This document shows, one piece after another, positions 26,148 through 61,063 of a stretch of 64,000 nt of DNA. Position 1 is the first letter of the stretch. Each line of letters starts with the position of its first letter. This DNA comes from Sedimentisphaerales bacterium (GTDB lineage Bacteria; Planctomycetota; Phycisphaerae; Sedimentisphaerales; Anaerobacaceae). The stretch covers positions 6,400,001 to 6,464,000 of the forward strand of contig OY970194.1 in assembly GCA_963708075.1 (NCBI GenBank), in the 5' to 3' direction. The position numbers were made by a program, and so were the translations under genes. The notes under the pieces are model-generated. The model was not told where the DNA came from. It made no database searches and saw only the letters and a list, made by a program, of their open reading frames with translations.

Positions 26148-26901
26148 TCATTCATTGGCATCGTATCCGCCTCCCAGTATGTCGACCACATATTTGAGAT
26201 CGGGATTGTCTGCGGACGCCTCCTCGGGTTCGGCGATGATGCCTTTGATGAACTTCAGCGTGCGGGCGTCTTTCCAGCGGGTGTAGCTGCCGTGGCCATC
26301 GACGAACGTCATGTTGCACCCGTCGTTGTGCCGGGCGGTCATGTTCTGCGAGTTGATGCCGACGAGAACCTGCCCACGGATTCCACATCCACCGGCCCCG
26401 GCTCTTAATGACGGGCCGGAAGTCCATTCCGAGAGCGTCTGGATCTATGTCCGTCAGGAGCAGTTGCCGGCCGGGATGAGAGACGCTGTGCAGCGTCCGG
26501 TAGCGTCCGGTGCCGTCGTAGCTTTGGCCGCACATGTTGGCCGCAAAACCATAGCAGGAGTCAATGGTCTTGCCCCAGACGGACATCCCTCCCTCATTCC
26601 TGGCGACGCTCTTGCACAGGAAGACCTCGTTCACGTTATAGACGTAGGATGCCATCTGCTCGGGGCCATGCAGCATCGGAATGCGATCGTCCTGCTCCGC
26701 GACAATCTGGTGCCAGGCCAGTCCCAACTGATGCTGGTTCGCCAGGCAGTGCGTCTGCTCGGCCTGTCTCTGGGCACGTGTCAGGCTCGGTAGCAGCAGC
26801 GACATCATGAGGCAGATGATCGAGATTACCACCAGCAATTCCGTGAGGCTAAAGCCTCTCGGGCGCTCGCGAATGCCTGCTTTTCTCCCATGTGGGGCCA
26901 T
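26148..26901 (-). CDS. Prepilin-type H-X9-DG protein, apparent +1 frameshift at 26364-26370
   Basis: RGFSLTELLVVISII N-terminus; RHNDGCNMTFVDGH lies in a second frame; removing one base of GAGAACC joins them. Confidence 0.85.
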
Positions 26902-27155
26902 GTCATTGCACTCCCGACAAAACGTCGATTCATGCCATTGGCCAAACGCTCGCGATGCACTTGTTCCGCCGCATCCCGCTGCGACCGGCGGCGCTTAAGA
27001 GCACGTCTATCCCGCTGATACAACCCTATTGTGGCGCGGACGCCGCCCGATGTCAAGCAGGAAATGCATCAGAAACGAGCAGGGCCGCAGGTCAGGCCTG
27101 CAGCCCTGTATCGATGTTCATGGGAGTGTCGAGAGGCCCTTCGCTGCACGAAAGC

Positions 27156-28469
27156 TCAGCGCTCCGCCTCTGGCTTGATGGTGATGGTGTGGCGAACCGG
27201 GACGAAAGCGGTGCTGATAGCGGCGACAAGCGGCGCACGAACTTTCTCCGTGAGGGCAACCGTCATCTCTATATCCGTTTGGCCTTCGGCCCCGTGGAAG
27301 AGGTCCTTGACCTGCCTTGTCTCGTAGGCCTGCTTCTTCACCACTGCCTCATCCACGCGTTTGAAGGCTTCGCTGAACGGGTTGACCTCGAAATCCGCCG
27401 CGAGATTGACGCCCCGGGTCAGTTCCTCGGCAGTGTATATCTTCGATGCATCGCCCCATGTGACACGGTAACGGCCCGGCGCCGCGTTGCGGACGCTGAG
27501 CATGAGTCGATTCAACCGATCATTGAAGGGCACAAGGGTCATGCCGGAGCGGATGCTGGAATCGTCGTTGGCCGGACCTGCGGCGCAGAATGGATACCGG
27601 CGGCTCTCAATCTCCATCTGTCCCGGCTCGGTGGCGAGGATGCGATGTCCCTCCGATACGGTGGCCTTGCCATCAGCCAAATCGAGCGTGATCGTGCCGA
27701 TCTCGCCGTCCAGACCCATCGCCCTGAGGAAGGCGTAGGCCATCACGAGGTGGCCCGCCCAGCCGGGGTGCACACCATCCTTGCCTGCGATCATGAAATT
27801 GCTGCCGTATCGCTGCTTTGCCTCGAATCCGCCGACCAGCATGGGACAGAAGACATCCGCAAATCCCACCTGCTCGTCGGTGGCCAGTGTGACGCCGACG
27901 TTGCGAAACTGGGCCAGGCTGTGATTGAGGTCCTCAACCGTGCCCTGGGCCCGCTGGACCCAGGCGGGCATCTTGCCCACGGTTCCGGGCGAGCCCTGGA
28001 TGACCCGCACGCCGCGCTGTTTGAACTTGCCTATGACGACCCGCGAGGCGTCACGATACGTTCTGGCGTACTCCTCTTTGTAGGGCTGGTAGTTGTGGTC
28101 GTTCATCCCATAGCACGTCGTGGCAATGGTCGGGCTGAAGCGCAGGACATCGTTCTCCATCCTCGCCAAAAAGCCGGGGGCTTTCTCGCCGCTCCAGCCG
28201 AACTGTCTCACCGTGACATGCAATTGCGGCACGCACACGGTCAGGTACGTCTCGATGATCCGCGAGTACATCTTCTGCTCGGTGATCGAGTCGCCGCAGA
28301 TGGCCAGCTTATCGCCGGGCCTGAGCAGCAACTCTTTGCACGCCGGCGCCTGCACCGGCCTATAGGTGGAAAAATACGGATCGGCGGGCAGTGGCTCCAA
28401 CGGCTGCGCAAGCAGCGGAGAACCCAACGCCACCACGAGAAGAATGAGGCACCACATGCGTTTTGTCAT
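27156..28469 (-). CDS. SGNH/GDSL hydrolase, secreted
   Basis: GDSITE, GWSGE, YGMND, DGVHP. Confidence 0.92.
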   Translation of the reverse strand: MTKRMWCLILLVVALGSPLLAQPLEPLPADPYFSTYRPVQAPACKELLLRPGDKLAICGDSITEQKMYSRIIETYLTVCVPQLHVTVRQFGWSGEKAPGFLARMENDVLRFSPTIATTCYGMNDHNYQPYKEEYARTYRDASRVVIGKFKQRGVRVIQGSPGTVGKMPAWVQRAQGTVEDLNHSLAQFRNVGVTLATDEQVGFADVFCPMLVGGFEAKQRYGSNFMIAGKDGVHPGWAGHLVMAYAFLRAMGLDGEIGTITLDLADGKATVSEGHRILATEPGQMEIESRRYPFCAAGPANDDSSIRSGMTLVPFNDRLNRLMLSVRNAAPGRYRVTWGDASKIYTAEELTRGVNLAADFEVNPFSEAFKRVDEAVVKKQAYETRQVKDLFHGAEGQTDIEMTVALTEKVRAPLVAAISTAFVPVRHTITIKPEAER

Positions 28470-28535
28470 GCGTGTCACTATAGCCCGCCGCCATCCCGCC
28501 GACAAGAGGAAACACAACCATCGCGGCCACGTTCA

Positions 28536-28742
28536 TCAACGCCATCCGTGTGGACCACGATGGTCCCAGTGCGGCCGGGGCGGCGGGCCGGGGACTTGGA
28601 TGACCTCGACTCGCTCGGCCGGCGGAACGTGTACGACGCGCACGGCCCGCGCCGACCTGTGTTCATCGCACGAGATGACCATGCAGCCACTGAGCCAGAG
28701 CATCAAGGCCGCCATGACGGCGATCAGCATTATCTTGTTCAT
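28536..28742 (-). CDS. Small lipoprotein
   Basis: MNK + hydrophobic core + LSGC; RBS GGGAG. Confidence 0.7.
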   Translation of the reverse strand: MNKIMLIAVMAALMLWLSGCMVISCDEHRSARAVRVVHVPPAERVEVIQVPGPPPRPHWDHRGPHGWR

Positions 28743-29004
28743 AATCGATTCTCCCGGACCAGCGACGCATTCACGGCGTCCCGTCCACAGATAAAAGGCA
28801 ACTCGCCGCCCGTTGGTAACATCCACGTATCCACTGGGGAACGCGGATGAACCATTCTTAAGACAGGTATCCGAAGAATCGATGCGGAGTGATGCGGACC
28901 ACGTGTGTCCTCAGGCTTCGGCGAGCTGAGCTCAGTGTAGATTTCCACCGCGCACCGTGCGTCGGGTAAGCCCTCCGATTTCTCTCCCGGCCGGACCTTG
29001 GCGG

Positions 29005-29793
29005 CTACAGATTCGCATAGTCCTTGAATTGTCTCATCCACTCCGGCCACACGGGCGTTCCACTGGCCGCTCGTTCCTGGACCCATTGCCGATGCCAATG
29101 CAGCTCCCACAATTCCTTCAAGCCGACCGGTCGGATCGACGTGTCCATGAACACGGCATTCACAGCCCCGTTGTGCCGATTGATACAGAAGCTGCACATG
29201 GCGTTGGTGTACCAGTCCCAGTGACACTCGCCGTCAACTGCCGGCGCGTGATTCCTTGGCAGGGGCAGGCCGTCCACCCACTGGCAATCGACGAACACGG
29301 GTACCTGGTACCCGCCCTTGATGCGAATTGTCCGCCAGTTCCTGTTCGTGTGCGGGTCGCCCGTGTCGTTGCCGACCCAGGCGTTGAGTCCGAAGCTGCC
29401 GTAGTCTCCTTTGATCGCATAGTTGGGCACGGTGGGCAGCCGGCCCTCGCCGTACACTCCCCAGCCCACAAAAGGCCCCTCGGTGTCATCGCTGTAGAAC
29501 TTGGTCGTCGCCGGGCAGACACGCATCTTTGGCTCACGGCTATAGTACGGCCGAAACGCGTGGACCCAGCTGTGAGTTGGCTCGCTGCCCGTCTCCTCGT
29601 GGAAGTTGCCGTTGTTGTCCTCCGCGTACATGGTAAAGGTCAGACCCATCTGCTTCAGGTTCGACTGGCACGCCACGGCTCTGGCTTGTTTGCGCACCCG
29701 CTGCAACGCCGGCATGAGAATGGCCATCAGCAACGCGATGATCGCGATAACAACCAGAAGTTCAATGAGTGTGAAGGCATTTGTCTTACGCAT
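29005..29793 (-). CDS. Prepilin-type H-X9-DG (DUF1559-like) protein
   Basis: [36 protein letters not shown]. Confidence 0.92.
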
Positions 29794-29932
29794 GGCGTTC
29801 CCTTCTCACGCAGCGTTTAGCGGTACCTCCGCAAACGACTGTGCTCGTCCCAGAATAGCGAAAGGGGCAGCCCTAGTCAAGCCTTTGGAGGGCTTCTCTC
29901 AGGGTATCCGCATGCAGACGGGAAATCTGTGG

Positions 29933-30685
<753 letters not shown>

Positions 30686-30710
30686 AGCATCCTCCTTTCA
30701 AAAGGCCCGG

Positions 30711-33755: not shown

Positions 33756-34081
33756 CTTCCGGAATATCTTGGCGGTGTCGAGGGTGTTAGCATCGTGTCG
33801 CAGGTGGAAGGCTTTCCCGATGGGGGCTGGCCCGGGCACGTTTCTGTATACTCGTAGTTCCGGTTTTGCGTTCATGCCTTGATTGTAGCCTCGGCGAGGC
33901 ACAACATCAATCTAAGGCAGGGGCGGTAGCTGAATTGCACGTCCTTCGTGGGGGTGTGATACATCCTGGCTTGAAGGCCTTCTCGCTCAGCGCGGATCCT
34001 GCGTGCTCGACCTGCGATTTGAAACTGTCCGGCACGTTCGGGGCCTCGCTGCCCACCACTTGCCGCCATCCTGTGTGGAGT

Positions 34082-34116
34082 AAGAAAAAGGCCCCGCCAT
34101 TGCCGCAGGGCCTTCC
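34082..34116 (-). terminator. Intrinsic terminator of the csp gene
   Basis: AAGGCCCTGC/GCGGGGCCTT stem followed by TTTCTT on the minus strand. Confidence 0.75.
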
Positions 34117-34137
34117 TATATTCAGATTCTCTTGGGC

Positions 34138-35592: not shown

Positions 35593-35620
35593 TTGCGTGG
35601 ACGCCGGAGGGCAGTATGAT
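35593..35620 (+). promoter_or_regulatory. Possible sigma70 promoter of the RRM gene
   Basis: TTGCGT-N16-TATGAT. Confidence 0.45.
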
Positions 35621-36926: not shown

Positions 36927-37338
36927 TTACTTCTTGTACGCGGCTTTGGGGTCGTAGACCTTTTGGGCGATGGGTGCGAGGGCGGTCTTGCTGTGGGGTT
37001 TCAGGGCCCGGTAGAAGCAGGACTGGTAGCCGACGTGGCACTGGCCTTGATCGACGGAGACTTTCAAGATCAGGCAGTCCTGGTCGCAGTCGACGAGGAT
37101 CTGGTGCACGGTCTGGACGTGGCCGCTTTCTTCGCCCTTCATCCAGAGCTTGCCTCGGGAGCGGCTGAAGTAGGTGGCCCGGCCGGTTCTCGATCGTGCG
37201 GTCGAGGGCCTCGCGATTCATCCAGGCGACCATGAGAACCTGACCGCTCTCGGCGTCCTGAGCGATGGCCGGGATCAGCCCCTGGGCGTCAAACTTCGGC
37301 GTAAACTGCAAACCTTCTTCTACCTGCTTCGATTCCAC
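36927..37338 (-). CDS. hisI: Phosphoribosyl-AMP cyclohydrolase, apparent +1 frameshift at 37185-37191
   Basis: [17 protein letters not shown] in one frame; [27 protein letters not shown] in the next. Confidence 0.92.
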
Positions 37339-44701: not shown

Positions 44702-44826
44702 GCCGGATTCGGCAAAATTCTCATGCGGCACTCGCTTGTGCGCCCGTACAGATGGCAGGGAGGGGCTATTGTGTGCGGAAGAATGATCCGGCGGTGTGCC
44801 TGGTGTGGAAATGGAGTTCATGAGCC

Positions 44827-45804
44827 GTGGAATTTGATCTCGACTATGCCCGCAGTGTGATTCGCGCGGAGGCCAGCGCGATTGCCTCGATGACGCCGAT
44901 TATCAATGGCGCTTTCGTCAAGGCGGCCCAGATGCTCTATGAGTGCACGGGCTCGTGCATCATCAGCGGCATCGGCAAGGCGGGCATCATCGGCCGCAAG
45001 ATCAGCGCGACCCTGGCCTCCACCGGTACGCCAAGCCATTTCCTGCACCCCGCGGAAGCCGTGCATGGCGATCTCGGTCGCCTGCGCAAAGACGATATCG
45101 TCATGGTTCTCAGCTACGGCGGCGAGACGGACGAGATCACTCGGCTCATCAACCTGGTCAAGCAGCTCCAGATCCGCCTCATCTCGATCACCAGCGATAT
45201 GGATTCGACACTGAGCCGGCACAGCGACGTCGTGCTGTGCATGGGCAAGGTGAACGAGGCCTGTCCGCTGGGCGTGGCGCCGAGCGTCTCGACGGCCTGC
45301 ATGCTCACGATTGGCGACGCGCTGGCGTTCACGGTGATGAAGGCCCGCCGCTTCAGCGTGGAGGACTATGTCCGGTTCCATCCCGGCGGCTCGCTGGGGG
45401 CCAAGCTGATGACGGTCGAGCAATCGATGATGTTCCGGCCGGGCGAGAAGCTGCCGGTGGTAAACGCCGGCATCACGGTGCGCCGGATGCTGGAGGAGAC
45501 CAGCGATCTGAAACGCCACGGGGCGGTGATGGTCGTGGACGAGCAGAGCAGGCTGGCCGGCATTATCACCGATGCCGACTTGAGGCGACTCCTGACCCGG
45601 CAGGGACCGGAAGCATTTGATCTAGCCGTTGGCACTATCATGACGGCCAACTGCAAGAGGATTCGCGCCGACGCCCTCGCCTCCGAGGCGACTGCCATCT
45701 TCCACAAGTACCGTATCGATGAGCTGCCCGTGGTCGACGCCGAGGACCGGCCCGTCGGCCTGATCGACGTGCAGGACATCGTGATGATCAAGGTCGTCGG
45801 ATGA
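44827..45804 (+). CDS. kdsD: Arabinose-5-phosphate isomerase (KpsF/GutQ)
   Basis: GIGKAG, STGTP, EAVHGDLG, HPGGSLG, CBS pair. Confidence 0.93.
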   Translation: MEFDLDYARSVIRAEASAIASMTPIINGAFVKAAQMLYECTGSCIISGIGKAGIIGRKISATLASTGTPSHFLHPAEAVHGDLGRLRKDDIVMVLSYGGETDEITRLINLVKQLQIRLISITSDMDSTLSRHSDVVLCMGKVNEACPLGVAPSVSTACMLTIGDALAFTVMKARRFSVEDYVRFHPGGSLGAKLMTVEQSMMFRPGEKLPVVNAGITVRRMLEETSDLKRHGAVMVVDEQSRLAGIITDADLRRLLTRQGPEAFDLAVGTIMTANCKRIRADALASEATAIFHKYRIDELPVVDAEDRPVGLIDVQDIVMIKVVG

Positions 45805-46325
45805 GACAGCGGCCGATAGATTTCAAGGCGATTCAACTGCTCGTGCTGGACGTCGACGGCGTTCTGACCGACGGCGGGCTGATCATCCACGCCGACGGCA
45901 GCGAGAGCAAACGCTTCCATACCCTCGACGGGCACGGGATTCGTCTGTGGCAGCGGGTGGGCGGCAAGGTCGCCTGGATCAGCGGGCGGATGTCGGAGCC
46001 CGTGAACCGCCGGGCGGAGGAGTTGGAAATCTCATACGTGCTTCAGGACTGTCACTTCAAGCTGCCGGCCCTGGAGCAGCTTCTCCGCGAGGCGGGCCTC
46101 AAGGCGGAGAACGTCGCATACGTGGGCGACGATCTGATGGACCTGCCGCCGATCCTGCATGTCGGCTTTGGCGTAGCCGTGGCGAATGCCGTCGATGAGC
46201 TCAAGGCCCATGCCGATTACGTGACCACCCGAGGCGGCGGCTATGGGGCGGTGCGGGAAGTGATCGAGTATATCCTGAAGAATTCCGGCCGGTGGGACAA
46301 CCTCATGGACCGGTACCTGACATAG
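45801..46325 (+). CDS. kdsC: KDO-8-phosphate phosphatase
   Basis: DVDGVLTDG, GDDLMD, GGYGAVRE. Confidence 0.93.
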   Translation: MRQRPIDFKAIQLLVLDVDGVLTDGGLIIHADGSESKRFHTLDGHGIRLWQRVGGKVAWISGRMSEPVNRRAEELEISYVLQDCHFKLPALEQLLREAGLKAENVAYVGDDLMDLPPILHVGFGVAVANAVDELKAHADYVTTRGGGYGAVREVIEYILKNSGRWDNLMDRYLT

Positions 46326-46341
46326 GCGCCGGCCCGGGAGT

Positions 46342-48616
46342 GTGAGCGTGCGCAGGTTCGTGATAGGACTGACTGTGCTTGGGGTCCTGGTGGCCCTGTA
46401 CCTGGGCTACGCGCGGATCGGCGGGACGCCGGCGCCCGGTTCTCAGCATACCCGAGCTGCTGCCGCCGCCGGTGGTGAAGACAACCGGGGAGCCAAACGT
46501 CCAGGGCGGCAGGATCGGTCCGATGAATACGGAAGTCATCGACATCAAGCAGACGCGGTTCTTCCACAGGGATGAAAGCGGCCGCGTCGATCGCGAGTTC
46601 GGCTTCGAGGTCTTTCTGCACAAGCAGGCCGACCGCTGGCGATTCACCCACCCGTACATGAAGCTGTTCCTGCCCAAGCTCCAGTGCCACGTCATCGCCG
46701 ACACCGGCGAGGTCCAGGTCCAAACCGCCTTCAAACAACTGGTTCCGAACGACGCCTTCTTCCAGGGCAACGTGGTCATTCACATCGTCCCTCCAAAGCG
46801 CAATGATCCGAGGGAGTGTCTCATCTACCTCGACGACGTGACATTCGTCGCGGAGAAGTCGCTGTTCTCCAGCACCGGCCCCGTGCGATTCGTCTCTCAC
46901 AGCGCCGTGCTCGAAGGCGTCGGTATGGAGCTGATCTACGACAGCCTGCAAGGCCGGCTGGAGCTGTTTCGCGTGGTCAAGCTGACGAGCCTGCGCATTC
47001 GCAGCGCCGACATCGCCCTGTTCTCCGGCGATAAGGAAACCGCCAGACGTGAACGCCGCAGAACAGGCGAGCCGGCCGCCGGTGTTGTGCAGGAACGCGC
47101 CGGTGGCGCATCCGGCTCTGTGCCTGCGGGCGCCGGGCGCGTCTTTTATGAGTGCGTTCTCCGCGGCAACGCGACAATCGATACGCCGCAGCTCCTCGTG
47201 ATCGCACGGGACCTCTTGTCGATCACCGATATCCCCTGGCCCCGACCTGCGGAAGACGAACCGACGGCGGACCGCGGACAAGTGGGGCCCTCTGAGCCGA
47301 ATACGTCGGAACCTGCACCGGAGCCGCTGGACACGAAGCCGCCGGGGCAGATCGCCTTCGATGCAATGCCGGCCGAGTCGTTCGACATCGTCGTGACTTG
47401 CTCGGGCGGCCTCGTGGTTGCCCCCATGGGCACCTGGAGCCGGCACGTGGACCCGAATGACCTTGCCCCATCGCCGGGCGGCGTCCCGCCGGCGCTCGAT
47501 GCTCAGTCGGATCGCCGGCAGGCCATCGCCCAGCGCATCGAGTACGACGCGACGACGGGCGATGGGGTACTCACCGGCCCGGTGCAGATGGCCGTGCCTC
47601 TCGATCCAAACAGTCTGGCCGGACCTGCGCAGGCGGACGCCGGTCGGGCCCCGGCTATACGCGGCGAACCTATCCCGATGACCATCACCGCTCGGGATGT
47701 AGTCCGCTACCTGTCTGCGTTGAATCGCGTGGTGCTCGAGGGCGACTGCGTGGCCTCCGCCCTGAAGACGGACCCGAATGTCACGCACGCGTTTGCACTA
47801 TCGGCCCCGACATTCGCCCTGGATCTTGCGGAGGATGCCAACGCGCCGGCGTCCGAGAAAGCCATCGGCACGGCGGTCGCCCTGAAGCGGTTCTGGACGG
47901 ACGGCGGCCCGGCCTCGATCGTCGTGAAAAGAAGGGCGGGTCGGCTTCATCCCGCTGGAGAGGGGCAGCTTCTCGGCTCGACGCAAGTGCTGGCCTCGCA
48001 GTTGGAGTATGAGGCGGCCGGCAAGCTGTTCACCGCCCGGGGCCCGGACGGCGAGCTGCGGCTCAACAACGCTCAAGCCTCCTCGCTCGACCCGAACGTG
48101 GGCGAGTTGCGTGCGAGTCGTGCATCTTTTCGCGATGTCCGCGACGAATCGCGGCAGATCGATCCCAACGCCTTCGGTTTCAATCAGCCGTGCTACGCCT
48201 TCCTCCGGGGCTTCGACCTGCTGACCTTCGCTTCCGACACGAATCGGATCGTCGTGGCCGCCGAGTCGCAGCCCATCCTGATCGACTACATCCCCGTGAT
48301 CGGGGGCAAGTACGGCCAGCACGTCAAGGGCGAGGCCGGACACCTCGACCTGACCCTTCGCCAGGCCGCCCCCGGCCGCATGGAGCTCGCCTCCCTCATC
48401 GCCTCGAAGGGCATCACCTACGAGGACCAGGACAAGCAATTCGCCGGCGGCACGCTCACCTACGACCGCGAACGATCTCTGGTGAAGGTCGTTGGTGACG
48501 ACATACAGCCATGCTCCCTGAACGGCGCGCCGGTTGATGGGATCGAAATGGACGTCACCACAGGCACCCTGAAGACCCGACTCGAAGGCCCCGGCGTCTT
48601 TCAGGGGAAACGCTGA
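46342..48616 (+). CDS. LptC/LptA-like beta-jellyroll LPS export protein (putative), apparent +1 frameshift at 46438-46444
   Basis: N-terminal TM anchor in frame 46342, long beta-rich body in frame 46379; position after kdsD-kdsC. Confidence 0.6.
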
Positions 48617-48626
48617 TCGGCCCCGG

Positions 48627-51176: not shown

Positions 51177-51383
51177 GTCTCAATTCCTCCCCGCCTCGGG
51201 CAGCGGCGTCGTCCCGCGGCGGCAACCGCACAGATCCGGCACGATGCTCGATCAACTGCCACTACCCAGTGTACCCGGTCCGGGCACGGCGGTCCTGTCA
51301 TCGGTTCTGATGAGCGGCGGGCGGAAAAACCTGATGCAGTGTCTGTGAAGACAATCTGGTAGTCGGGTGGCAGCGGCGAGCCG

Positions 51384-51440
51384 GCGCTTGACGCTGCCAC
51401 CCACAACCTCATGCTTGCTTTGCCACAATCCTGTCGTGCA
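51384..51440 (+). repeat. Dispersed 57-bp element, copy 2
   Basis: 51/57 identical to the reverse complement of 891-947. Confidence 0.85.
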
Positions 51441-51586
51441 TCCGACGCAGGCCGATAGGGTATGGCATTGTACGGCCACAAGGAGTATGATAGGCGACGT
51501 CGCGGACGGCGAGGGTATCGTTGCCGCGGCACTGAGGCATATCGGGAAATCGCAGAACCGCTGGCTGGATGGCTGGAGATTGGACC

Positions 51587-52123
51587 GTGAAGCGCATTCT
51601 TTCTCTGCTCATGCTGTTGCTCACTGTGTCGTGCAGTTCCTCGAACAAGGGCTCCGCAACTTCTGTTGCGGAGGATGAGAAATACAACCAGGCATTGGAA
51701 TACTACACGCTGACGCACGCGCCGGGGATGGACCCGAATCGTCCGGCGGATGGGCCGCGTGGAAGGCCGACCTCCGAAGCAAACGTTCAGAGGGCGACAA
51801 GGCTTCTGACCCTGCGGGATGCGATCCGCGCATGGCGGCACGAGAAGCCGGATCGCCGCGTCGCTGTCAAGGATCACAAGGAGGTCGAGCGGCTCGTCGA
51901 GCGAGTCTTTGACGACCCCGTGTCACGATCACGAATGGTCGTGAAGACCTATGATCTGAAGCTATGCGAGGGGATCACCTACCAGTTCTACAACAAGAAC
52001 CGGGGTTTCGTTTGTGTCATGTTTTATGACCGGGGCCCCAGGATGCGGGCGGGCCTGGACCTCTACCTGTTCAAGCACGATGGGAAATGGGAGATTGTCT
52101 ACAGAGTCGACTGGATCTCCTGA
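51587..52123 (+). CDS. Hypothetical lipoprotein
   Basis: GTG start after GGAG; KR + hydrophobic core + TVSC. Confidence 0.7.
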   Translation: MKRILSLLMLLLTVSCSSSNKGSATSVAEDEKYNQALEYYTLTHAPGMDPNRPADGPRGRPTSEANVQRATRLLTLRDAIRAWRHEKPDRRVAVKDHKEVERLVERVFDDPVSRSRMVVKTYDLKLCEGITYQFYNKNRGFVCVMFYDRGPRMRAGLDLYLFKHDGKWEIVYRVDWIS

Positions 52124-52168
52124 GAGCCTCTAACGGAATGAAAGTATGGCCGAAGGCCATTCCTTATA

Positions 52169-52263
52169 TCATTCCCGCGCAGGCGGGAATCCAGCCGCGT
52201 ACCGAAGTTTCCTGGACCCCCGCCCCCGATCAGGTCGAGGGCAAGCTCTGCGCGGGGGTGACA
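52169..52263. repeat. REP-like doublet (TCATTCCCGCGCAGGCGGGAATCCAG family)
   Basis: Two inverted palindromic units between convergent genes; related to 56061-56137. Confidence 0.85.
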
Positions 52264-52273
52264 TAGTCGAGGC

Positions 52274-52954
52274 TCAGGGGCAGAGGTGGGTCAGGTCTTG
52301 CATGGTCAGGTCGCTGAGGCGGGCGACGACTTTGTCGGCCTCCTGTAACTGGTCGGCTTCGTAGGTGTTCGTCACGGCGATGGTGCGCATGTTGGCGGCC
52401 CGGGCGGCCTTGAGGCCCCAGTGCGAGTCCTCGATGACCACGCAGTGCGCGGGCGCGATCGGCTGGACCCGCCGCTGGTTGAGCTTCTTGAGGGCCAGCA
52501 CGAAGCCCTGCGGGTCGGGCTTGCCCCGCTTGACCTCCTCAGCCGAGACGACCACGTCGAAGTAGCTGCGCAGCTTGGCCCCGTCCAGGATCAACTCGAT
52601 CTCCGCCCGCAGCGCGCCGGAGCAGATCGCCGTCGGCACGCGATTCTGCGACAGCATTTGGAGGAACTCGCGGACGCCCTCGATGATCCTGCCCTCCGTG
52701 CGGGCGAGCTGCTCGAAGACCTTCGTTTTCTGCTGAACGAGTTCCTGGATTTGGGCCTCGTCGATGTGAAGGCGTCCTTCCCCGATCAGGGCTTTGAAGC
52801 AATCCACGTCGGTCATGCCGAGGTAGTCGCTGTAGTACTCGCGCCTGGTGAGCTCGAATCCATGCTTGCTCAATACGGCGTTGAAGGCCCGGAAATGAAG
52901 AATCTCCGAGTCGGTAATGACCCCGTCGAAATCAAAGATCACCGCGCCAAGCAT
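52274..52954 (-). CDS. HAD-family phosphatase (beta-PGM-like)
   Basis: IFDFDGVITDSE, GKPDP, IEDS. Confidence 0.92.
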   Translation of the reverse strand: MLGAVIFDFDGVITDSEILHFRAFNAVLSKHGFELTRREYYSDYLGMTDVDCFKALIGEGRLHIDEAQIQELVQQKTKVFEQLARTEGRIIEGVREFLQMLSQNRVPTAICSGALRAEIELILDGAKLRSYFDVVVSAEEVKRGKPDPQGFVLALKKLNQRRVQPIAPAHCVVIEDSHWGLKAARAANMRTIAVTNTYEADQLQEADKVVARLSDLTMQDLTHLCP

Positions 52955-52970
52955 ATAGGTCCCATTCGTC

Positions 52971-54773
52971 TTACGTTTCCGGCACGGGCCCGACCAGGGC
53001 CTCGTACTCGCTGAACGTCGATTTGTCGCCCCGGCGGACGAGGTCCGTCAGTGCCTTGATCTTCGGTGCGTTCTTTTCGACGTATCGCCGGGCCAGCACG
53101 GCCTTTCGTTGCTTCATGGGGACCTTTTGCCCGTTCCTGGCGTCGGCGCCAGCGACCGCGACATTCATGTCCACGGTGGTGCTGGCCTGGCCGCAGAACA
53201 GGTAGCCGTTGATCAGGTCGATGGCGACATCGACCAGGGCCCGGCCGTACAGGTCCATGTAGTCGTTGCCCTGCTCCTTCGTGAACTCGATGGCCGCGTT
53301 CAATTGCTGCGTCCCCTCCGCCAGCTTCTGCAGAAGGTCCGCCACATCCGGGCTGTATTGCAGGCCCGCAAGCTCGGCCAGGTACTTCTCCGCCGTGCCG
53401 CTGCACACGCCGCGGACCGCCGCCACGACCTGCAACTGGCTCGTGCCCTCGTAAATCGTCGTGATCCGCGCGTCGCGCACGTGCCGCTCGATGGCGTAGT
53501 CGCGCATGTAGCCGCTGCCGCCGAGGACCTGCATCGAATCGTACGTCACGCGATTGGACATCTCGGAGCAGTAATACTTGCTCATCGGCGTCAGCATGCC
53601 GGCGTATCTCTTATAGATGCGGGCGCTGTCCTTGAGCTTCTTTAGCTCGCCCTTGTCCTCCGGCGGGTGGTTATCGACCTGATTATTGTAGCCGATGGCC
53701 AGGTCCACGACGCGCGAGGCGTCGTAGAGCAATGCCCGTCCGGCCTCGATGGCGATCTTCATGTCGATGAGCATGTCGCGCACGGCAGGCAGGCGCTCGA
53801 TGGCCACGGAGAACTGCTTTCGACTGGCCGCATAGTCCCGGGCGATGCGGTAAGCCGCCTCGGCGATTCCCATGGACTGCCCGGCGATGCCGATTCTCGC
53901 GCCGTTCATCAGCGTGGCGACATAAGGGACCAGGCCGCGCTGCCGCTCGCCGATCAGCTCGCAGGGTGTGTTGTCGAAGAAGATTTCGCAGGTGGGCGAG
54001 CCGTGGATGCCGAGCTTGTCCTCAAGCCGGCGGATGTGGACGGTCGGTCCGGGCTCACAGACGAGCAGGCTCAGACCCAGCCCGCCGCTGCGGTCCGGCT
54101 CACTACGGGCGAGCACCAGCAGGATATCGCCGCAGCCGTTGGTGATGAATCGCTTGACGCCGTGGAGGAACCAGTTGCCGTCGTTGTCCTGGAAGGCCCG
54201 CACCTTCACCGCCTGCAAATCCGAGCCGGCGTCGGGCTCCGTCAGCACCATTGCGCCTGTGACCTTGCCGTTGGCGAAGGCCGGCAGGTACTTCTGCTTG
54301 ATCTCGTCGGAGGCAAATGCGTTGATCGTATCGGCGATGCCTTGGAGGCCGAAGATATTCATCAGCGAGGCATCCGCCCGCGAGAGAATCTCGATAGCCA
54401 TGGAGTACACGAGATTCGGGAAGTTCAGGCCGCCGAAGCGGTGAGGCAGGGTGAAGCCCATGACTTCCGCCTGGCCGAGCTTCTCGATGGCCTCCCGGAT
54501 TCCCTGCGGCCGGGTGACCGAGCCGTCCGGGTTCAGCGTGTTGCCCTCGCGGTCCACGCTTTCCGCCCGCGGCGCGATGAAGTCCGCGCACAGCTCGCCG
54601 ATGGACTCCAGCACCATCTCATAATTTCGGACGGCCTCCTGCTCGTTGGCCGGAGCGTGATCGAACTGCCCCGCGAACCGGAAGTCCTCCTCGAATGCCC
54701 TCGCCAGTTGCCCCAGGTCGATATGCCTGAACAGAAACCGGATGTCATCGTTGTCTTTGTAGAAGTTGCCCAT
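52971..54773 (-). CDS. Acyl-CoA dehydrogenase
   Basis: LTEPDAGSDL, KRFITNG, KLGIHGSPT, RKQF, GGSGYMRDY, IYEGTSQLQ. Confidence 0.95.
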   Translation of the reverse strand: MGNFYKDNDDIRFLFRHIDLGQLARAFEEDFRFAGQFDHAPANEQEAVRNYEMVLESIGELCADFIAPRAESVDREGNTLNPDGSVTRPQGIREAIEKLGQAEVMGFTLPHRFGGLNFPNLVYSMAIEILSRADASLMNIFGLQGIADTINAFASDEIKQKYLPAFANGKVTGAMVLTEPDAGSDLQAVKVRAFQDNDGNWFLHGVKRFITNGCGDILLVLARSEPDRSGGLGLSLLVCEPGPTVHIRRLEDKLGIHGSPTCEIFFDNTPCELIGERQRGLVPYVATLMNGARIGIAGQSMGIAEAAYRIARDYAASRKQFSVAIERLPAVRDMLIDMKIAIEAGRALLYDASRVVDLAIGYNNQVDNHPPEDKGELKKLKDSARIYKRYAGMLTPMSKYYCSEMSNRVTYDSMQVLGGSGYMRDYAIERHVRDARITTIYEGTSQLQVVAAVRGVCSGTAEKYLAELAGLQYSPDVADLLQKLAEGTQQLNAAIEFTKEQGNDYMDLYGRALVDVAIDLINGYLFCGQASTTVDMNVAVAGADARNGQKVPMKQRKAVLARRYVEKNAPKIKALTDLVRRGDKSTFSEYEALVGPVPET

Positions 54774-54800
54774 ATCTCATCCGTACCTTAGTTTTCACTT

Positions 54801-54882
54801 CGGGTGCCATGTCCACGCTCGCGTGGACATGCCTGGCTCATCCGGCAGATACATGCTTACGCAGGCGTAAGCATGGCACCCG
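54801..54882. repeat. REPIN-like doublet (CGGGTGCCATG...CATGGCACCCG)
   Basis: Terminal inverted 11-mers enclosing two internal palindromes. Confidence 0.85.
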
Positions 54883-54883
54883 G

Positions 54884-54954
54884 CGACTTACGATTCTCGA
54901 TTCGCGATTTTGGGCCGGCCCTTCAGCAATCGTAAATCATAAATCGTAAATCAC
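54884..54954. repeat. Inverted pair of heptamer arrays (CGATTNN x4 / AAATCGT x4)
   Basis: CGACTTA CGATTCT CGATTCG CGATTTT - GGGCCGGCCC - CAATCGT AAATCAT AAATCGT AAATCAC. Confidence 0.85.
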
Positions 54955-55985
54955 TCTACGCCTTTCTCCTTGATGGCCTTGATCATCCTTGGGACGACCT
55001 CGTTCAGGTCGCCGAGGATTTTGTAGTGGGCGACGTTGAAGATCGGGGCCTCGGGATCGTTGTTGATGGCGACGATCTTCTGGCTCTGGGCCATGCCCGC
55101 CTGGTGCTGGATGGCGCCGCTGATTCCGACGGCGATGTAGAGACTCGGGCGGACCGTTGTCCCGGTCTGGCCGACCTGGTGGTCGTGGTCGATGAAGCCG
55201 AGATCGACCGCCGCCCGGGTCGCCCCCGGGGCCGCACCGAGGCAGTTAGCCAGATCCCAGACCAGCCGGAAATTCTCTTTGCTGCCAACGCCCGCGCCGC
55301 CTGCGACGATGATTCTGGCCGCCTTGAGATCGACCTTCTTTGGCCGCTTGTGTTCCTGCAAAATCTCCAGGGGCAGATCGTCGTGAGCGAGCTTCACACT
55401 CTCCGTCACGATTGTGCCGCGGCGCTTCACGTCGGGTTGCGGCATGGCCATCACGCCTTCACGGACAGTCGCCATCTGCGGCCAGCGGTCGTAGTTGATG
55501 ATCGTCGCGATGATGTTGCCGCCGAACGCCGGGCGGATCTGGAACAGCAGATTCTTATGGACCTCGCCGTCCTTGGCCGTGGTGTGATCGCCGATCTGCA
55601 GGTCGGTGCAGTCGGCGGTCAGGCCCGCCTTGGCGGCGCTGGCGATTCGCGGGGCCAGGTCCCGGCCCGCCACCGTCGCGCCATAGAGCACGATCTGCGG
55701 CTTGTGCTTGTGGATCAGGTCGAGGATCACCTTCGCGTAGCTGTTGGCCTGGTACGCCCCGAGGAACGGGTGCTCGACCAGGTACACCTTGTCGGCCCCG
55801 TACTGTGTCAGCTTCGTGCCGAGCTCCTTGACGCCGTCGCCCAGGAGCACCGCCGCCAGTTTCACCTTCAGCGTATCCGCCAGGTGCCGCGCCTTGCTCA
55901 TCAGCTCCAGCGGCGTCTCCTCCAGACGCCCGCCATGCTGCTCCGCGAACACCCACACGTCCCCTTGTCTATTCACGTCGATCAT
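54951..55985 (-). CDS. etfA: Electron transfer flavoprotein alpha subunit
   Basis: [28 protein letters not shown]. Confidence 0.95.
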
Positions 55986-56060
55986 GCTTGGCTTCTCGTC
56001 GTCCTTATCTCGTCAAATCGATGTCCCTGTTCCGTGCGCATCAGACGAAACGGTCGTCCT

Positions 56061-56137
56061 CATGTCACCCCCGCGCAGGCGGGGGTCCAGGAACGCACAG
56101 AGAGTAACTGGATTCCCGCCTCCGCGGGAATGACATG
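56061..56137. repeat. REP-like doublet
   Basis: CATGTCACCCCCGCGCAGGCGGGGGTCCAG ... CTGGATTCCCGCCTCCGCGGGAATGACATG. Confidence 0.88.
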
Positions 56138-56183
56138 GGGTGGCGTTCGCCCCGCTCTTACCAAACTATAGGCTCGAAGCGTG

Positions 56184-57194
56184 TCAGTCATCTGTCAACT
56201 TCGCCTCCGCTGGCAACGTAGCTCGAATTGTGGCTTTCAATTCCTTGCTAACATCATCAGGTTTCGTCGAGTCCCACAGGATTGTCAAATGGTGGTTAGT
56301 ATCGAAGTGAGGCTTGGACTTGTGATCTTCGAATACTTTTTTCTCACACGTGTAGATGACCGGTTTTCCCATTCCCTCAGCGTACCCGGCTTCCCAGTAG
56401 GCGCCCCGATTCCCGTGCGTCAAGTCGGCGATCAGAAAGCGCGAGGTTCGTATCTCCACCCTCAACCTGTCATCTATTAGTCCTGCCGGCTGGGGCCTAT
56501 CAGGGAGTTTGAATAGATCGAAGCCGGTTTCCTTGACCGCCGGCTTGAACACGCTCTCAAAGATGTCCTCCAACGGTTCCTCGTTGTACTGCATGGCCAT
56601 GAATGCTCTGCGGCTGTCAGCGTGCCCCAGTTTGAGCTTCTCGTAATGCTCCCAACCATCGAAAGACAGAGTTACGCGTCTCCAAACGCCAGATTCTCCG
56701 GGCCCATGGTCGATCAGTTTTGCATTGTTGAGCAAGTGGCTAGAAACGAGCTCGAATTCCTGTTCATTTGGAGACCCGACGATCGCTTGAATGGCCAGTC
56801 TCTCGACTGCGGCGTATCGACCGCCGACCTTGATGTTATCACCTATCCACCGCACATAGTTGTCAGCCTGCGCCATAGGTGATGGACGTGGATTCCTGAT
56901 AACGCCGCTCACGAGCTCGTGGGTTAGGACTATGGGGTCCTTCCCGCTTAGCCTCTTCTTTGACTCATGTTCAGTGCGAATCCAATGGCTCAGCACTGCC
57001 ATCTTCTGAGGGTCTCTCTCAAGTAAATCCTCTAGAAAGGACACCCTGCGCAGGGAATCGGTGAGAGGTATCTTAAGGCAGAAGTCACCACACCGCTCGC
57101 AGTGGTACTTGTCCACCCTGGCTTGGTCTCGGGCATCAGGCTCCGAGATCAGCGGCGTAATATCGGTTTGACACACAGGGCATTTGTCGCTCAC
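56184..57194 (-). CDS. Zn-ribbon + nucleoside-deoxyribosyltransferase/TIR-like domain protein (accessory)
   Basis: CPVC...CERC N-terminus; AFMAM...IADLTHGNRGAYWEAGYAEGMGKPVIYTC...HFD C-terminus; GTG start after AGGAG; visibly lower GC. Confidence 0.8.
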   Translation of the reverse strand: MSDKCPVCQTDITPLISEPDARDQARVDKYHCERCGDFCLKIPLTDSLRRVSFLEDLLERDPQKMAVLSHWIRTEHESKKRLSGKDPIVLTHELVSGVIRNPRPSPMAQADNYVRWIGDNIKVGGRYAAVERLAIQAIVGSPNEQEFELVSSHLLNNAKLIDHGPGESGVWRRVTLSFDGWEHYEKLKLGHADSRRAFMAMQYNEEPLEDIFESVFKPAVKETGFDLFKLPDRPQPAGLIDDRLRVEIRTSRFLIADLTHGNRGAYWEAGYAEGMGKPVIYTCEKKVFEDHKSKPHFDTNHHLTILWDSTKPDDVSKELKATIRATLPAEAKLTDD

Positions 57195-57217
57195 GTTCGT
57201 ACTCTCCTGTTTGTACT

Positions 57218-58129
57218 TCACGCGATGATCTTGTCCTGGATGAGCTCGTGGATCATGGCGGCGACACCTTCGTCGGTCGGGGCGATTGTCTTGCTTTCTT
57301 TCGCGGCCAGGACGACGCTTTGGATGCGGTGGACCTTCGTGGGCGAGCCGCTGCGGCCGCACCAGGTCAGGTCCGCACCGATGGCGTCCAGGTCCCACTG
57401 CTTGATCAGCAGGCCCTTCTGCGCCAGGGCGTCCGCCTGCTCCTTGACGAGCTTCTTGATCGTTACATCATTCACGCCGGGATGGGCGGCCTTGACCTGT
57501 TGCTCGATCTCCACCGGCGCCAGGGCGTTCTTGTTCTTCATGAGTTTCCTGGCCGCCGCGACCCGGGGCTCGCCCGCTTCGCCCGTGACCGTCAGCAGGA
57601 CGGGCAGCCTGGCCCGGACCAGTTGCCAGCCATTGCCGATATTGCGACGGGCCGTGATCGTATCGCCTTCGAGTCCTTCCATCGCCTCGACGTAGGTAAT
57701 CTGGGTAATTCCGAGCTTCTCGGCCATCTGCGGGCCCACTTGGGCGGTATCGCCGTCGATGGCCTGCCGGCCGCACAGGACGATGTCGTAATCCAGCTTT
57801 TTCACGGCGCAGCTCAGGATGTAGCTGGTCGCCAGGGTATCGCTGGCGGCGGCACGCGAATCGGTGACCAGGACGGCGTCGTCCGCGCCCCGGTACAGAG
57901 CATCGCGGAGAATCCTCGCCGCCGCGGGAAGGCCCATCGTAATCACGGTAACCCGGCCGCCGAAGCGGTCCTTGATCCGCAGCGCGATCTCCAGCGCGTT
58001 CAAGTCTTCCGGATTGAAAATGGCCGGCAGGGCCGCACGATTTACCGTTCCGTCGTCATTCATGACCTGCCCGGTAATCCTTTGCGTATCCGGCACCTGC
58101 TTGGCCAACACAACACAGTGATAACCCAC
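57218..58129 (-). CDS. etfB: Electron transfer flavoprotein beta subunit
   Basis: KQVPDT, NPED, GRQAIDGDTAQVGP, GSPTKV. Confidence 0.95.
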   Translation of the reverse strand: MGYHCVVLAKQVPDTQRITGQVMNDDGTVNRAALPAIFNPEDLNALEIALRIKDRFGGRVTVITMGLPAAARILRDALYRGADDAVLVTDSRAAASDTLATSYILSCAVKKLDYDIVLCGRQAIDGDTAQVGPQMAEKLGITQITYVEAMEGLEGDTITARRNIGNGWQLVRARLPVLLTVTGEAGEPRVAAARKLMKNKNALAPVEIEQQVKAAHPGVNDVTIKKLVKEQADALAQKGLLIKQWDLDAIGADLTWCGRSGSPTKVHRIQSVVLAAKESKTIAPTDEGVAAMIHELIQDKIIA

Positions 58130-58398
58130 CTGCGGTCTCCTACCAGTTGTCTTATCTGATGCTGATCCCCAGGAAGCCCATAGTTTACCCGCCCTCGTTC
58201 GCAGGTCAACCCCAAACTGAGGTAGGCCGCCAAACGCTGTGTGTACAGCCGCGTTCTATATTGCACGGCGTGGACCAAGAGGCGGGGGCGCCTCGGGCTG
58301 GAAAGAAGAAGCCCCCGCAAGCAAAAAACGGAGGGAGAGGAAGTGCGGCTCACGGGGGCTTATAGACTGCGATTCCCTGTGTCCCGAAGGACCGGGCC

Positions 58399-58782
58399 TC
58401 AGGTTCGGGAAGACGGCCCCGTATGAGACCGTGTTGCGAAATGTGCCGGCGCGCAACCTTGCAGGCGCGCCAAAGCAGCGGTCTTGTCCTCGACGAAATC
58501 GAAGAGTCTGTCGAGCTGGACGGTAACGAAGACGCCCCTCGTTTGGGGAGCCACGCCGCACAGGACCAGCTTGTGCCCCAGGTCCCGCATCAGCCGGCGC
58601 AATTCCAGGAGCCTGGAAAACGTCAGAGACCCCACAACATCAACCGTGGAGAAGTCAACGATGACATCGCAGCGGCCTCTTTGACGTGCCATTTCCACGA
58701 CGGTTTGCAGCTCGCTGTGTCCCTCCAGTTCCCGAGGCAAGTCCACAACGATCACGTCCTCCAACCCTGTCTGAACGCTCAT
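58399..58782 (-). CDS. STAS domain protein
   Basis: VIVDFSTVDVVGS...KLVLCGV...LDRLFDF. Confidence 0.85.
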   Translation of the reverse strand: MSVQTGLEDVIVVDLPRELEGHSELQTVVEMARQRGRCDVIVDFSTVDVVGSLTFSRLLELRRLMRDLGHKLVLCGVAPQTRGVFVTVQLDRLFDFVEDKTAALARLQGCAPAHFATRSHTGPSSRT

Positions 58783-59196
58783 CCACGGCCATCCTTTCCA
58801 GCATCCTGGTGCCAATCAAAATCGTAGGTGCGACCTATCCTATTTCTAATGGCGTCTGCCGATGGCAGAATGTGGATGCCAAAAATGAGAAAAATTCATT
58901 CGACGAAGCACATCGCCGCTGCATCTCCTCGTGACCGGCGTATCCTCCCCTCCTAATGACCCGGAATCACGGCATCTGTCGCTCTGCAGGCCCGCTACTC
59001 CTTGTGGGACATGAGGATTGCCCCCGTGCGCGGAACTTCGGCCTCTCCTACGTCCTGGAACTTGTCTCAATTGTGAGAGACAACGTCGCGATTATCGGTT
59101 CACGCCCCGCCAAGGGCCTGCGGGTCTGATAATGAAACGTCCGCGATTATCGGCCCTTTTCGATTTCCGTGTGGCATCCGCCCATGCGTATGGACA

Positions 59197-59212
59197 TGGC
59201 ACGCTATTTGCT
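59197..59212 (+). promoter_or_regulatory. sigma54 -24/-12 promoter
   Basis: TGGCACGCTATTTGCT matches TGGCAC-N5-TTGC(A/T). Confidence 0.8.
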
Positions 59213-59355
59213 GTCTTAAGGTTGTCATCGCCATAGACGTGTGTGGCGGTACTTGGGGGTCAGCGAAACACCATACGTAACGTAGGTCACGCCAGAACCC
59301 AATTCGAGGGGACAAACAGCCGGATTCTGCCGGCACGAATTGGAAAGGGGTCTAA

Positions 59356-59974
59356 ATGCACACCGATCGAAACCTGGGGAGACTGTTTGTTGCCGCGATT
59401 GCCACGGCCTTGCTCATGGCGGGCTGGGCGGTCGCCGCGCACTCCGATCACGGCTGTGATGGCTGCCACGTGCCTCACAACGCCGGCGATCTGCCGGGAG
59501 TGCCGCTCTGGAACGGCAACGAGAACCACCACGACGTTCACGATGTATTCCAGCTCGACGTTGCAGGCGAGCATGGAGGGCCAGCCCACCGGGGCCTCCA
59601 GGCTGTGCCTCAGTTGCCACGACGGCGCCAACCCGAGCTATGTGTGGATGAGCGACAGCCGCAAGTTTGGGGCCAGTGAGCTGACGAACAGCCATCCGAT
59701 CTCGTTCGTGTATGACTCCTCGCTGGTCGCTGCCGACGGCGCGTTGAAAGACCCGTCGCAGCCCAGCACGCTCGGGCGGACGATTGCCGAGGACCTGCTG
59801 GACGCCAGCAGCCGGGTGCAATGCAACAGTTGCCACGACGTGCACATCAGCGGCGTGGGCCAGTATTTGCTGCGCGGCTACGATTACGGCCGGGAGACGA
59901 TCGCGAACCCCGACGGCACGACCACGACAGTGCGTCACGGACCGGAACTGTGCCGCATGTGCCACATCAAATAG
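59356..59974 (+). CDS. Periplasmic tetraheme c-type cytochrome (doubled-CXXCH-like), apparent +1 frameshift at 59521-59527
   Basis: Signal peptide + CDGCH in frame 59356; CLSCH, CNSCH and CRMCH in the next frame. Confidence 0.85.
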
Positions 59975-60290
59975 GACCGGGGCACCGAGGCTCGTTGCAC
60001 ACGGATCCTTCGCGGCCCGTCGCCGGTATCGCAATGGCGGGCTGCATACGTGCCCATCGAGCCCTGGAATATGATTCTATAGCACCGGGTGGCAGCGGCA
60101 AGCGCGAGCTTGCCGATGGTTCCCAAAGGGACCATCACCAAAGCCTTTTGGCCCCGTTCAGGCTAGGCTTGGGGGGGCTGCCACCCGGTGCTTGTCATTT
60201 GAATGCCCGAGCCCGAGACCAGGAAGCCCGAAAACTCTGCGGCGAATTCGCCTACCCGAACATCCCCGAAGACGACCCGCCGGAAGCAGA

Positions 60291-60434
60291 ATAGGACCCA
60301 TGGGACCTATAGGACGGATCGGACGAATCCGGTACCTTGCCACGGCACCGGCGGCGTGAACCGATTTCAGCCAGGGTCACGGGGCTCATTGGTTCCATAG
60401 GTCCTATGAGTCCCATCCGTCCTATTCGTCCCAT
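60291..60434. repeat. Convergent 9-nt variant arrays (ATRGGACNN): 60291-60326 (+) and 60381-60434 (-)
   Basis: ATAGGACCC ATGGGACCT ATAGGACGG ATCGGACGA versus TGGTTCCAT AGGTCCTAT GAGTCCCAT CCGTCCTAT TCGTCCCAT. Confidence 0.88.
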
Positions 60435-61063
60435 CCCGCAGCCGCGGATTGTCACGGCTCTGGCGGCGGGCATGGTAAAGCCGTTCTGTGAACCCGCCTT
60501 CAGCGAGGAAATGCTGCTCCAAAGAGCGGAGTTGCTGGTCAAGCAGGTAGTTGGCCTGGTGGACGAGACAGATCACGGCGTTAGCCGCAACCTCCGGCAG
60601 CCCCTTCTCAACATAGGTCCTATAGGTTCTCATAGGTCCTATCAGGCCGGTAGGCCAACGTCCTGATCGCACGAGCCTGCGGATGGTCCTTGCCCCAAAT
60701 GGGCAGGTCCCGCTGCCGGAGAAAATCCTGATAGTCCTGGAGCAATTCCTCCAGGCTGGCCCGCGCCACATTGGTCAGCTTGAGTTCAGTCTTCTTCGAG
60801 GTGCCGGAGGCTTGGCTACCCTCCGCGATATTCTGCTTGCCGCTCCTCGCGGCCTGCACCATCTGATCGGTTGTGCGCGAGTAGCGGTCGATGAAGCGGG
60901 CGCAGAAGGCGACCGTCGCATCATAGATGATCTCGGCCACCTGATAGGATTTGAGCTGCCGATACCCGCCATGCGCAGGAATCACCCCCGGCGAATCATA
61001 GGTCCCATCGGCCCCATGAGTCCCATCCGTCCCATCCAATCGCGGCTCTCTCCTATCCTCCAT
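60367..61063 (-). CDS. Four-helix-bundle (23S-IVS/Avd-like) protein with suffix domain, apparent +1 frameshift at 60625-60631
   Basis: HGGYRQLKSYQ, DQMVQAARSGKQNIAEGS, VARASLEELLQDY; suffix AANAVICLVHQANYLLDQQL..LEQHFLAEGGFTERLY in the second frame. Confidence 0.9.
61000..61035 (-). repeat. 9-nt variant array at the 5' end of the four-helix-bundle gene
   Basis: AGGTCCCAT CGGCCCCAT GAGTCCCAT CCGTCCCAT. Confidence 0.85.

Follow-up and report, generated by a model that had tools for sequence, protein, structure and literature searches.

The stretch analyzed here (the window) comprises 64,000 nucleotides of a Sedimentisphaerales bacterium, positions 6,400,001 to 6,464,000 of contig OY970194.1, and is part of a single contig of 7,515,525 bases (genome 60% G+C, 93% complete). 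The names of its homologs point towards Planctomycetota, Phycisphaerae/Sedimentisphaerales. It contains 16 GAGAACC/GGTTCTC heptamers and 29 intact GAGACC/GGTCTC hexamers, including those at 163, 9847, and 20981. A preliminary description of the window had reported five genes that each switch frame at a GAGAACC heptamer, where deletion of one A restores the hexamer and a continuous protein, while many hexamers are intact. Exact matches to the heptamer were found at all five positions (26364, 37185, 46438, 59521, and 60625), and the count of intact hexamers bears out the latter remark. For comparison with independent sequence, contigs of four public runs were placed on positions 44100-64000 of the window. 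The five sites, the genes that they split, and one natural copy of the heptamer are as follows.

26364..26370, + strand: GAGAACC with one A too many, the true sequence being GAGACC; antisense to the prepilin gene (frames after deletion, paralogs; outside the independent-contig test)
26148..26901, - strand: prepilin-type (N-methylation motif) gene, 250 amino acids (aa) when read through (PF07963 match; paralogs)
37185..37191, - strand: GGTTCTC, which is GAGAACC in the direction of hisI and interrupts that gene; relatives have ...TIETGRATY... at the junction (outside the independent-contig test)
36927..37338, - strand: hisI (phosphoribosyl-AMP cyclohydrolase; 136 aa), present once in the genome (PF01502 match)
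46438..46444, - strand: GGTTCTC, antisense to a 757-aa gene (homologs; X1 contig one base short)
46342..48616, + strand: 757-aa gene (read through), family unassigned (continuous frame; homologs)
59521..59527, + strand: GAGAACC in a multiheme cytochrome gene (base 59524 missing from independent contigs; homologs)
59356..59974, + strand: paired-CXXCH cytochrome c gene, 205 aa when read through (PF09699 match)
60625..60631, - strand: GGTTCTC in a four-helix-bundle gene (homologs; X2 contig with one gap)
60367..61111, - strand: four-helix-bundle gene (PF05635-like), 247-aa open frame from the first GTG (PF05635 below cut-off)
45105..45111, no strand assigned: natural in-frame GGTTCTC, a negative control (homologs, frames)

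Deleting one base of the doubled pair gave continuous frames of 250, 136, 757, 205, and 247 aa in the prepilin, hisI, 46438, cytochrome, and four-helix genes, respectively; open frames were thus restored in all five genes, as had been claimed, and homologs span the junction in four of them. With same-genus homologs, the best tblastn score was 181 bits with the deletion and 100 without it for hisI, 175 vs 92 for the cytochrome, 144 vs 93 for the four-helix gene, and 57 vs 40 for the 46438 gene. The best deletion offset fell on the doubled base in hisI and the cytochrome and inside the motif in the four-helix gene, and was placed only loosely in the 46438 gene. A DNA search of five relatives gave no ortholog across the junction of the prepilin gene; its same-genome paralogs align over residues ~15-244 only after the deletion, which also recovers a C-terminal HxxxxxxxxxDG stretch. 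The earlier gene labels were matched by Pfam for hisI, in which the PF01502 profile match begins at the junction, and for the prepilin and cytochrome genes. The four-helix gene scored 31 against PF05635, under the cut-off of 33.8, and the LptC-like label of the 46438 gene was not confirmed, its 724-aa downstream part having no Pfam match. The motif lies on the sense strand in three genes (hisI, cytochrome, and four-helix) and on the antisense strand in the other two, the orientation originally described. Four other heptamers of the window (13266, 20745, 21773, and 45105) are natural and in frame.

Frame shifts were then scored throughout the genome with a dicodon model trained on it, comparing the best frame in the 120 bases before and after each position. 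Of 1683 GAGAACC/GGTTCTC sites, 657 were assessable, and 118 of these showed a +1 shift and seven a -1 shift, with a +1 background of 0.9%; p-values from this test take positions as independent, and true overlaps of genes contribute to the background, with ATGA words enriched. GAGAACC was the top 7-mer in an unbiased scan for +1 shifts, and the intact hexamer was in frame at 1575 of 1618 sites. Because the strict form of the test placed only one of the five window sites at the motif position, flagging neighboring positions for the other four, the 118 shifted sites are a sample rather than a census. The affected share amounts to ~6-7% of GAGACC sites (~6.5%), or roughly 240-290 genome-wide. A second estimate came from a homology catalogue, in which the genome was aligned with the proteins of 60 stretches from two fragmented relatives, G018 and G011 (parts of these genomes, 1.18 Mb). 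Among its 71 frameshifts, GAGAACC accompanied 23 of 46 +1 events and none of 25 -1 events, with ~0.4% expected; catalogue regions at 50% identity or more had 135 heptamers to 301 hexamers, which likewise gives about 7%. The genome-wide enrichment that the preliminary description had put forward as a check was therefore found by frame and by homology alike.

The error target is the full hexamer GAGACC and not a sub-motif, because the heptamers GAGAACG, GAGAACT, and GAGAACA shift at only 11 of 696, 6 of 388, and 7 of 507 sites. These one-base neighbors are at background, as is CAGAACC (1/476), and the sub-motif GAGAC, left open as an option in the preliminary description, was rejected on the same counts. 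A longer or bipartite motif was rejected as well, since the 20 bases on each side give only soft preferences within ~4 bases; the error rate was 14% after T, 9.7% after C, and 1.7% after G. Doubling of the A was the sole strongly enriched form among the single-base insertion variants of GAGACC. There was a mild excess at the insertion variants GGAGACC (16/606) and GAGACCG (14/559), and the other variants were not clearly enriched. None of the deletion variants of GAGACC was enriched, nor was there error enrichment at 7-mers derived from GAGACG, GAGACA, or GAGACT.

Comparison with the independent contigs indicated that the additional base is absent from the DNA. Base 59524 is left out in X1 (depth 6.2/6.2) and in X3 (3.5/3.5), which are runs from different studies. 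Over 46173-46773, the X1 contig has 600 letters on 601 positions, with no mismatches and one gap that has no listed position; altogether, the eight X1 pieces listed show two mismatches and one gap. The X2 contig across 60625, from a ~90% relative, covers 537 positions with 536 letters and has one gap, likewise without a listed position; an X2 contig ending at 59524 is uninformative for the cytochrome site. The read check suggested earlier thus gave an absent base at 59524 and one-base-shorter contigs over 46438 and 60625, within the part of the window that the contigs covered. Among 17 groups of repeats whose 25-nucleotide flanks are identical on either side, seven contain GAGACC as well as GAGAACC copies. 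Furthermore, the only ileS of the genome (isoleucyl-tRNA synthetase) is split at GGTTCTC (genome position 1,830,463), as the only hisI is split at the motif, and shifted sites are not depleted in genes. Because the base is missing from independent contigs, the repeat copies are mixed, and the only ileS is split, the frameshifts are almost certainly an assembly artefact; together with the motif enrichment, this upholds the original proposal that the genes are intact.

Two explanations in which the heptamer would have a biological role can be weighed on these data. Programmed ribosomal frameshifting or transcriptional slippage at GAGAACC would account for the recurrence of one heptamer at frame switches. 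However, 40 of the 118 shifted sites are antisense and 78 sense, a split matching that of intact GAGACC (p=0.43), and the shifted sites fall in every codon register, distributed as for the intact hexamer (p=0.13); because of this, recoding is excluded for practical purposes, in agreement with the argument first drawn from the two orientations. The continuous frames in relatives and the independent DNA without the base point the same way, and we assign recoding the lowest probability of any reading considered. Real motif-targeted insertion mutagenesis, for instance a cutting or repair footprint left by the nuclease or Vsr of the cassette described below and fixed in the chromosome, is also very improbable; the preliminary description had judged it less likely. 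The motif is the likely target of that nuclease-bearing, Vsr-containing cassette, and the independent contigs covered only three of the five sites; but contigs otherwise identical to the assembly lack the base, the sole ileS and the sole hisI would be inactivated, and the shifted sites show no depletion in genes and the register of random GAGACC sites.

The preliminary description had supposed that the organism modifies GAGACC, and a survey of its methylases yielded a predicted modifier, an Eco31I/BsaI-type pair forming N6-methyladenine (m6A) and 5-methylcytosine (5mC, m5C), in the following locus.

Genome ~4,944,990-4,949,700, outside the window: low-GC cassette of an m6A methylase, a permuted 5mC methylase, a DUF3883 nuclease, and Vsr (profile matches, gene order)

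The cassette has 53.5% G+C, compared with 61-64% in its flanks. The adenine methylase is followed by the C5 methylase (~4.947 Mb) and by a 437-aa NOV_C/DUF3883 gene, and then by a convergent vsr. The adenine methylase (570 aa) scored 389.3 bits on TIGR02987 (Alw26I/Eco31I/Esp3I family; cut-off 353.5), a profile exceeding its cut-off in one of 24 genus genomes, namely the present one. The only C5 methylase match of the genome is circularly permuted, with profile positions 234-322 preceding 2-180 in one frame; natural enzymes of this kind are listed in PMC5944983. In S5 (part 1 of 2) of that paper, its segment IRESYAKGGGSRSTYYG groups by eye with M2.Eco31I and M2.BsaI (GGTCTC), and not with Esp3I/BsmBI (CGTCTC) or Alw26I/BsmAI (GTCTC). 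The enzyme is 50% identical overall to a 396-aa E. coli enzyme that adjoins a PF09665 nuclease and matches, by eye, the M2.Eco31I rows of S5 (PMC5944983). Over the first 119 aa the identity is 66%, compared with 56% for this N-terminal segment and an Enterococcus fused enzyme. Assignment to the GGTCTC clade agrees with the hexamer avoidance in homologous cassettes (below) and with the lack of error enrichment at the GAGACG, GAGACA, and GAGACT derivatives.

Sizes and the GGTCTC target have been given for the Eco31I and BsaI methylases (PMC10810934). In a system identical to Eco31I, GAG(m6A)CC was found by single-molecule real-time (SMRT) sequencing and GGT(m5C)TC was predicted (PMC4659465), and adenine-methylated GAGACC together with cytosine-methylated GGTCTC has been described in another E. 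coli strain (PMC12679398). By analogy, the most likely products of the methylase pair are GAG(m6A)CC and, on the opposite strand, GGT(m5C)TC. Since GAG(m6A)CC is marked in E. coli (PMC4659465), the doubled base corresponds to the m6A position, beside the pair that would bear m5C. The cassette thus resembles the type IIS system of Eco31I, EcoMI, and BsaI (GGTCTC; M1 m6A, M2 permuted 5mC; PMC4659465, PMC5944983) in its adjacent TIGR02987 m6A and permuted C5 methylases, in a recognition segment ending ...SRSTYYG, and in the hexamer implicated. It differs from the Eco31I system in that a co-directional 437-aa DUF3883 PD-(D/E)XK protein and Vsr were found in place of a PF09665 nuclease.

We propose that the genes are intact in the cell and that the cassette would methylate GAGACC/GGTCTC. 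With m6A and m5C on adjacent base pairs and opposite strands, reads of both strands would be disturbed at the same spot, and with marks on both strands no clean strand would be left for the consensus. A long-read consensus would then sometimes double the A/T pair at m6A, at ~6-7% of sites and depending on the flanks. On the evidence of an assembly, the extra call could originate from either strand, the one with m6A or the one with m5C. We put the probability that the artefact at GAGACC is caused by the methylase pair of the cassette at about 90%.

The relatives provided controls for this attribution. In G018 and G011 (1.18 Mb), one of 82 heptamers shifts (Fisher p=8e-6). Two further relatives, of which 0.8 Mb (G013) and 0.4 Mb (G033) were examined, are only 74-76% complete and are taken as very error-rich assemblies because ~5.8% of assessable positions in their stretches (C35 of G013; C27/C33 of G033) lie near a +1 shift with no dominant motif. 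Shifts were seen at 5 of 53 heptamers in G013 and 2 of 26 in G033, which at this 5.8% background is not enriched and not significant, although the power is low. An artefact at GAGACC with another origin, such as a different modification or a k-mer weakness of the basecaller or polisher, would agree with the flank-dependent error rate (14% after T vs 1.7% after G), and the genome has many other methylases. Against such an origin, the error-rich relatives, which have no family member over the cut-off, show no such enrichment, the cassette is predicted to target just the hexamer at which the errors lie, and the base that is doubled is the one known to carry m6A. Phosphorothioation likewise finds no support in a search in which DndC was not found, control hits were weak, and ssp, dpd, and other modification systems were not covered; no D12-class methylase was found in the genome. 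We therefore consider another origin improbable, if less so than real mutagenesis, and methylation by the cassette pair the better explanation.

Motif-linked consensus errors are established for Oxford Nanopore sequencing, as at the Dcm motif CCWGG (PMC6591954). Ambiguous positions (PMC11610573) and strand-specific mismatches (PMC11610603) occur at methylation motifs in nanopore assemblies, and such errors affect only some occurrences of a motif (PMC12392509). The errors described here are similar in that they concern one short motif, affect some occurrences only, and are absent from other data; they differ in that the error takes the constant form of one inserted base, that the motif is not a palindrome and would carry marks on both strands, and that the platform is presumed. 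The frameshifts are a well-resolved new instance of a known artefact and not new biology.

Several points weigh against the attribution to the methylase pair. We infer the methylation of the sites, the nanopore platform, and the both-strand mechanism. Shifted sites favor one assembly strand (74:44, compared with 814:761 for intact sites; p=0.02), and the control offered by G013 and G033 is low in power, those genomes being 74-76% complete. Among the indels listed, only that at 59524 appears explicitly, the gaps at 46438 and 60625 being unplaced; 26364 and 37185 lie outside the stretch covered by independent contigs; X1, with no recorded library, may derive from the same sample as the assembly; and depth is only 3-6. 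Methylation errors with R10.4 are described as mainly substitutions in the parts of PMC11610603 and PMC11610573 cited here, and a literature search, weak on subscription journals, gave no published report of this GAGACC indel.

The putative partner nuclease of the methylases was considered separately. The HNH endonuclease PF09665 (RE_Alw26IDE) had no match in the 93%-complete genome in a search whose controls were also silent; the profile detects the E. coli nuclease at 510 bits. The 437-aa DUF3883 protein showed no similarity to the Eco31I-type nuclease (E 0.55) in a comparison that did not extend to BsaI's own nuclease. Among 8000 candidates scored, it had 209 homologs at E<=1e-20. From these, 43 loci were taken, and 32 unique ones were left after 11 duplicates were dropped. 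Where a unique locus reached 1.2 kb or more upstream, a permuted C5 methylase was present in 22 of 23 cases, and where it reached 3 kb or more, an m6A methylase was present in 17 of 18; every complete recognition segment ends in SRSTYYG. Vsr occurred in one of 20 loci with at least 600 bases downstream. In cassette DNA, no hexamer among 2080 was avoided as strongly as GAGACC (9 vs 32.9 expected), whereas the flanks had 37 vs 37.9; the cassettes are related, and the avoidance therefore overstates their independence. At locus L179, a DUF3883 member adjoins, in divergent orientation, a complete Eco31I-like system. That system has an Eco31I-like nuclease of its own (52% identity), and the DUF3883 protein may therefore be accessory.

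In the structural model, the C-terminal domain of the DUF3883 protein is predicted to fold like Hjc-type PD-(D/E)XK nucleases (Z 12.4, root-mean-square deviation 2.8, 114 aligned). The N-terminal domain was modeled with confidence (pLDDT 92) and had only weak winged-helix matches (Z at most 4), which do not show a new fold; no sequence relative of the protein was found in the PDB. The nearest ESM Atlas clusters (0.86) are BpuJI-like type IIS nucleases (BpuJI_N plus NOV_C), a lead only. These are similar in having an N-terminal domain, a flexible linker, and a C-terminal NOV_C nuclease; in contrast, a BpuJI_N Pfam match was present in none of 37 DUF3883 members, and BpuJI-like enzymes were not listed in the fold searches. 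Based on gene neighborhoods, recognition segments, and hexamer avoidance, we lean towards the view that a widespread system specific for GGTCTC has the DUF3883 protein as its cognate restriction enzyme, representing a BsaI/Eco31I isoschizomer family unrelated to the HNH enzyme R.Eco31I. According to the model, this family would combine an N-terminal recognition domain without a clear solved relative and a small PD-(D/E)XK nuclease, and it could cut at an offset other than that of BsaI. A literature search, weak on subscription journals, gave no paper on a DUF3883 nuclease family with Eco31I-type methylases. If the proposal is correct, the error footprint would be indirect in vivo evidence of cassette activity on GAGACC, and the homologs would make up a family of nucleases specific for GGTCTC, unrelated to Eco31I and open to testing. 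GGTCTC is the site used in Golden Gate cloning.

A second motif was associated with indels. The preliminary description had placed its five frameshifts at GAGAACC, which stands for the genes above; an apparent sixth, near 62300, lies at GCGC in the following gene.

61226-64000, - strand: gene of a type IIG restriction-methylase with Eco57I, N6_Mtase, and MmeI domains, which appears to be interrupted near 62300 (domain matches)
62290..62302, - strand: apparent -1 frameshift just after GCGC in this gene (frames only)

A GAGAACC at 63158 lies within the open frame of the same gene. In the homology catalogue, GCGC was within ~10 bases of 15 of 25 -1 events and 13 of the 23 remaining +1 events, with ~9% expected. 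GCGC is a second indel-error motif, with both -1 and +1 shifts. It was enriched in G033 (51/931 at -1) and slightly so in G013, whereas G018 and G011 showed no enrichment; its observed/expected ratio in the genome is 0.76. The GCGC enzyme is probably not a 5mC methylase, the only C5 methylase found being that of the cassette; 4mC would be expected at GCGC and at CAGCTG. An orphan beta-class DNA methylase (genome 3,447,922-3,448,989) with 71-81% identity in 22 of 24 genus genomes is only a candidate for this enzyme, and is a candidate for a lineage-wide methylase; a literature search on it gave nothing.

In the homology sample, 51 of the 71 frameshifts were at the two motifs, and pseudogene, completeness, and pathway calls are consequently distorted, with databases inheriting truncated proteins. 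The 240-290 or so GAGAACC sites and the similar GCGC class falsely break genes, ileS and hisI among them. In methodological terms, a modification motif was obtained from the assembly alone and could then be linked to one particular pair of enzymes.

Other modification-related features were observed in the genome. An M.PvuII-like N4-methylcytosine (m4C) methylase (377 bits to PDB 1boo; genome 4,912,817-4,913,821) adjoins an unassigned 215-aa gene and was found in only six of 24 genus genomes. CAGCTG is nearly absent, with an observed/expected ratio of 0.042 here and 0.03-0.10 in four relatives, and three of its 27 assessable sites shift +1. Several palindromes are strongly avoided: TTTAAA (0.20), TTGCAA (0.32), CTCGAG (0.34), GTCGAC (0.36), AAGCTT (0.41), and CTAG (0.18). 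Within the window, short intergenic repeats at ~60085-60122 and 25900-26145 have many copies in the genomes of relatives.

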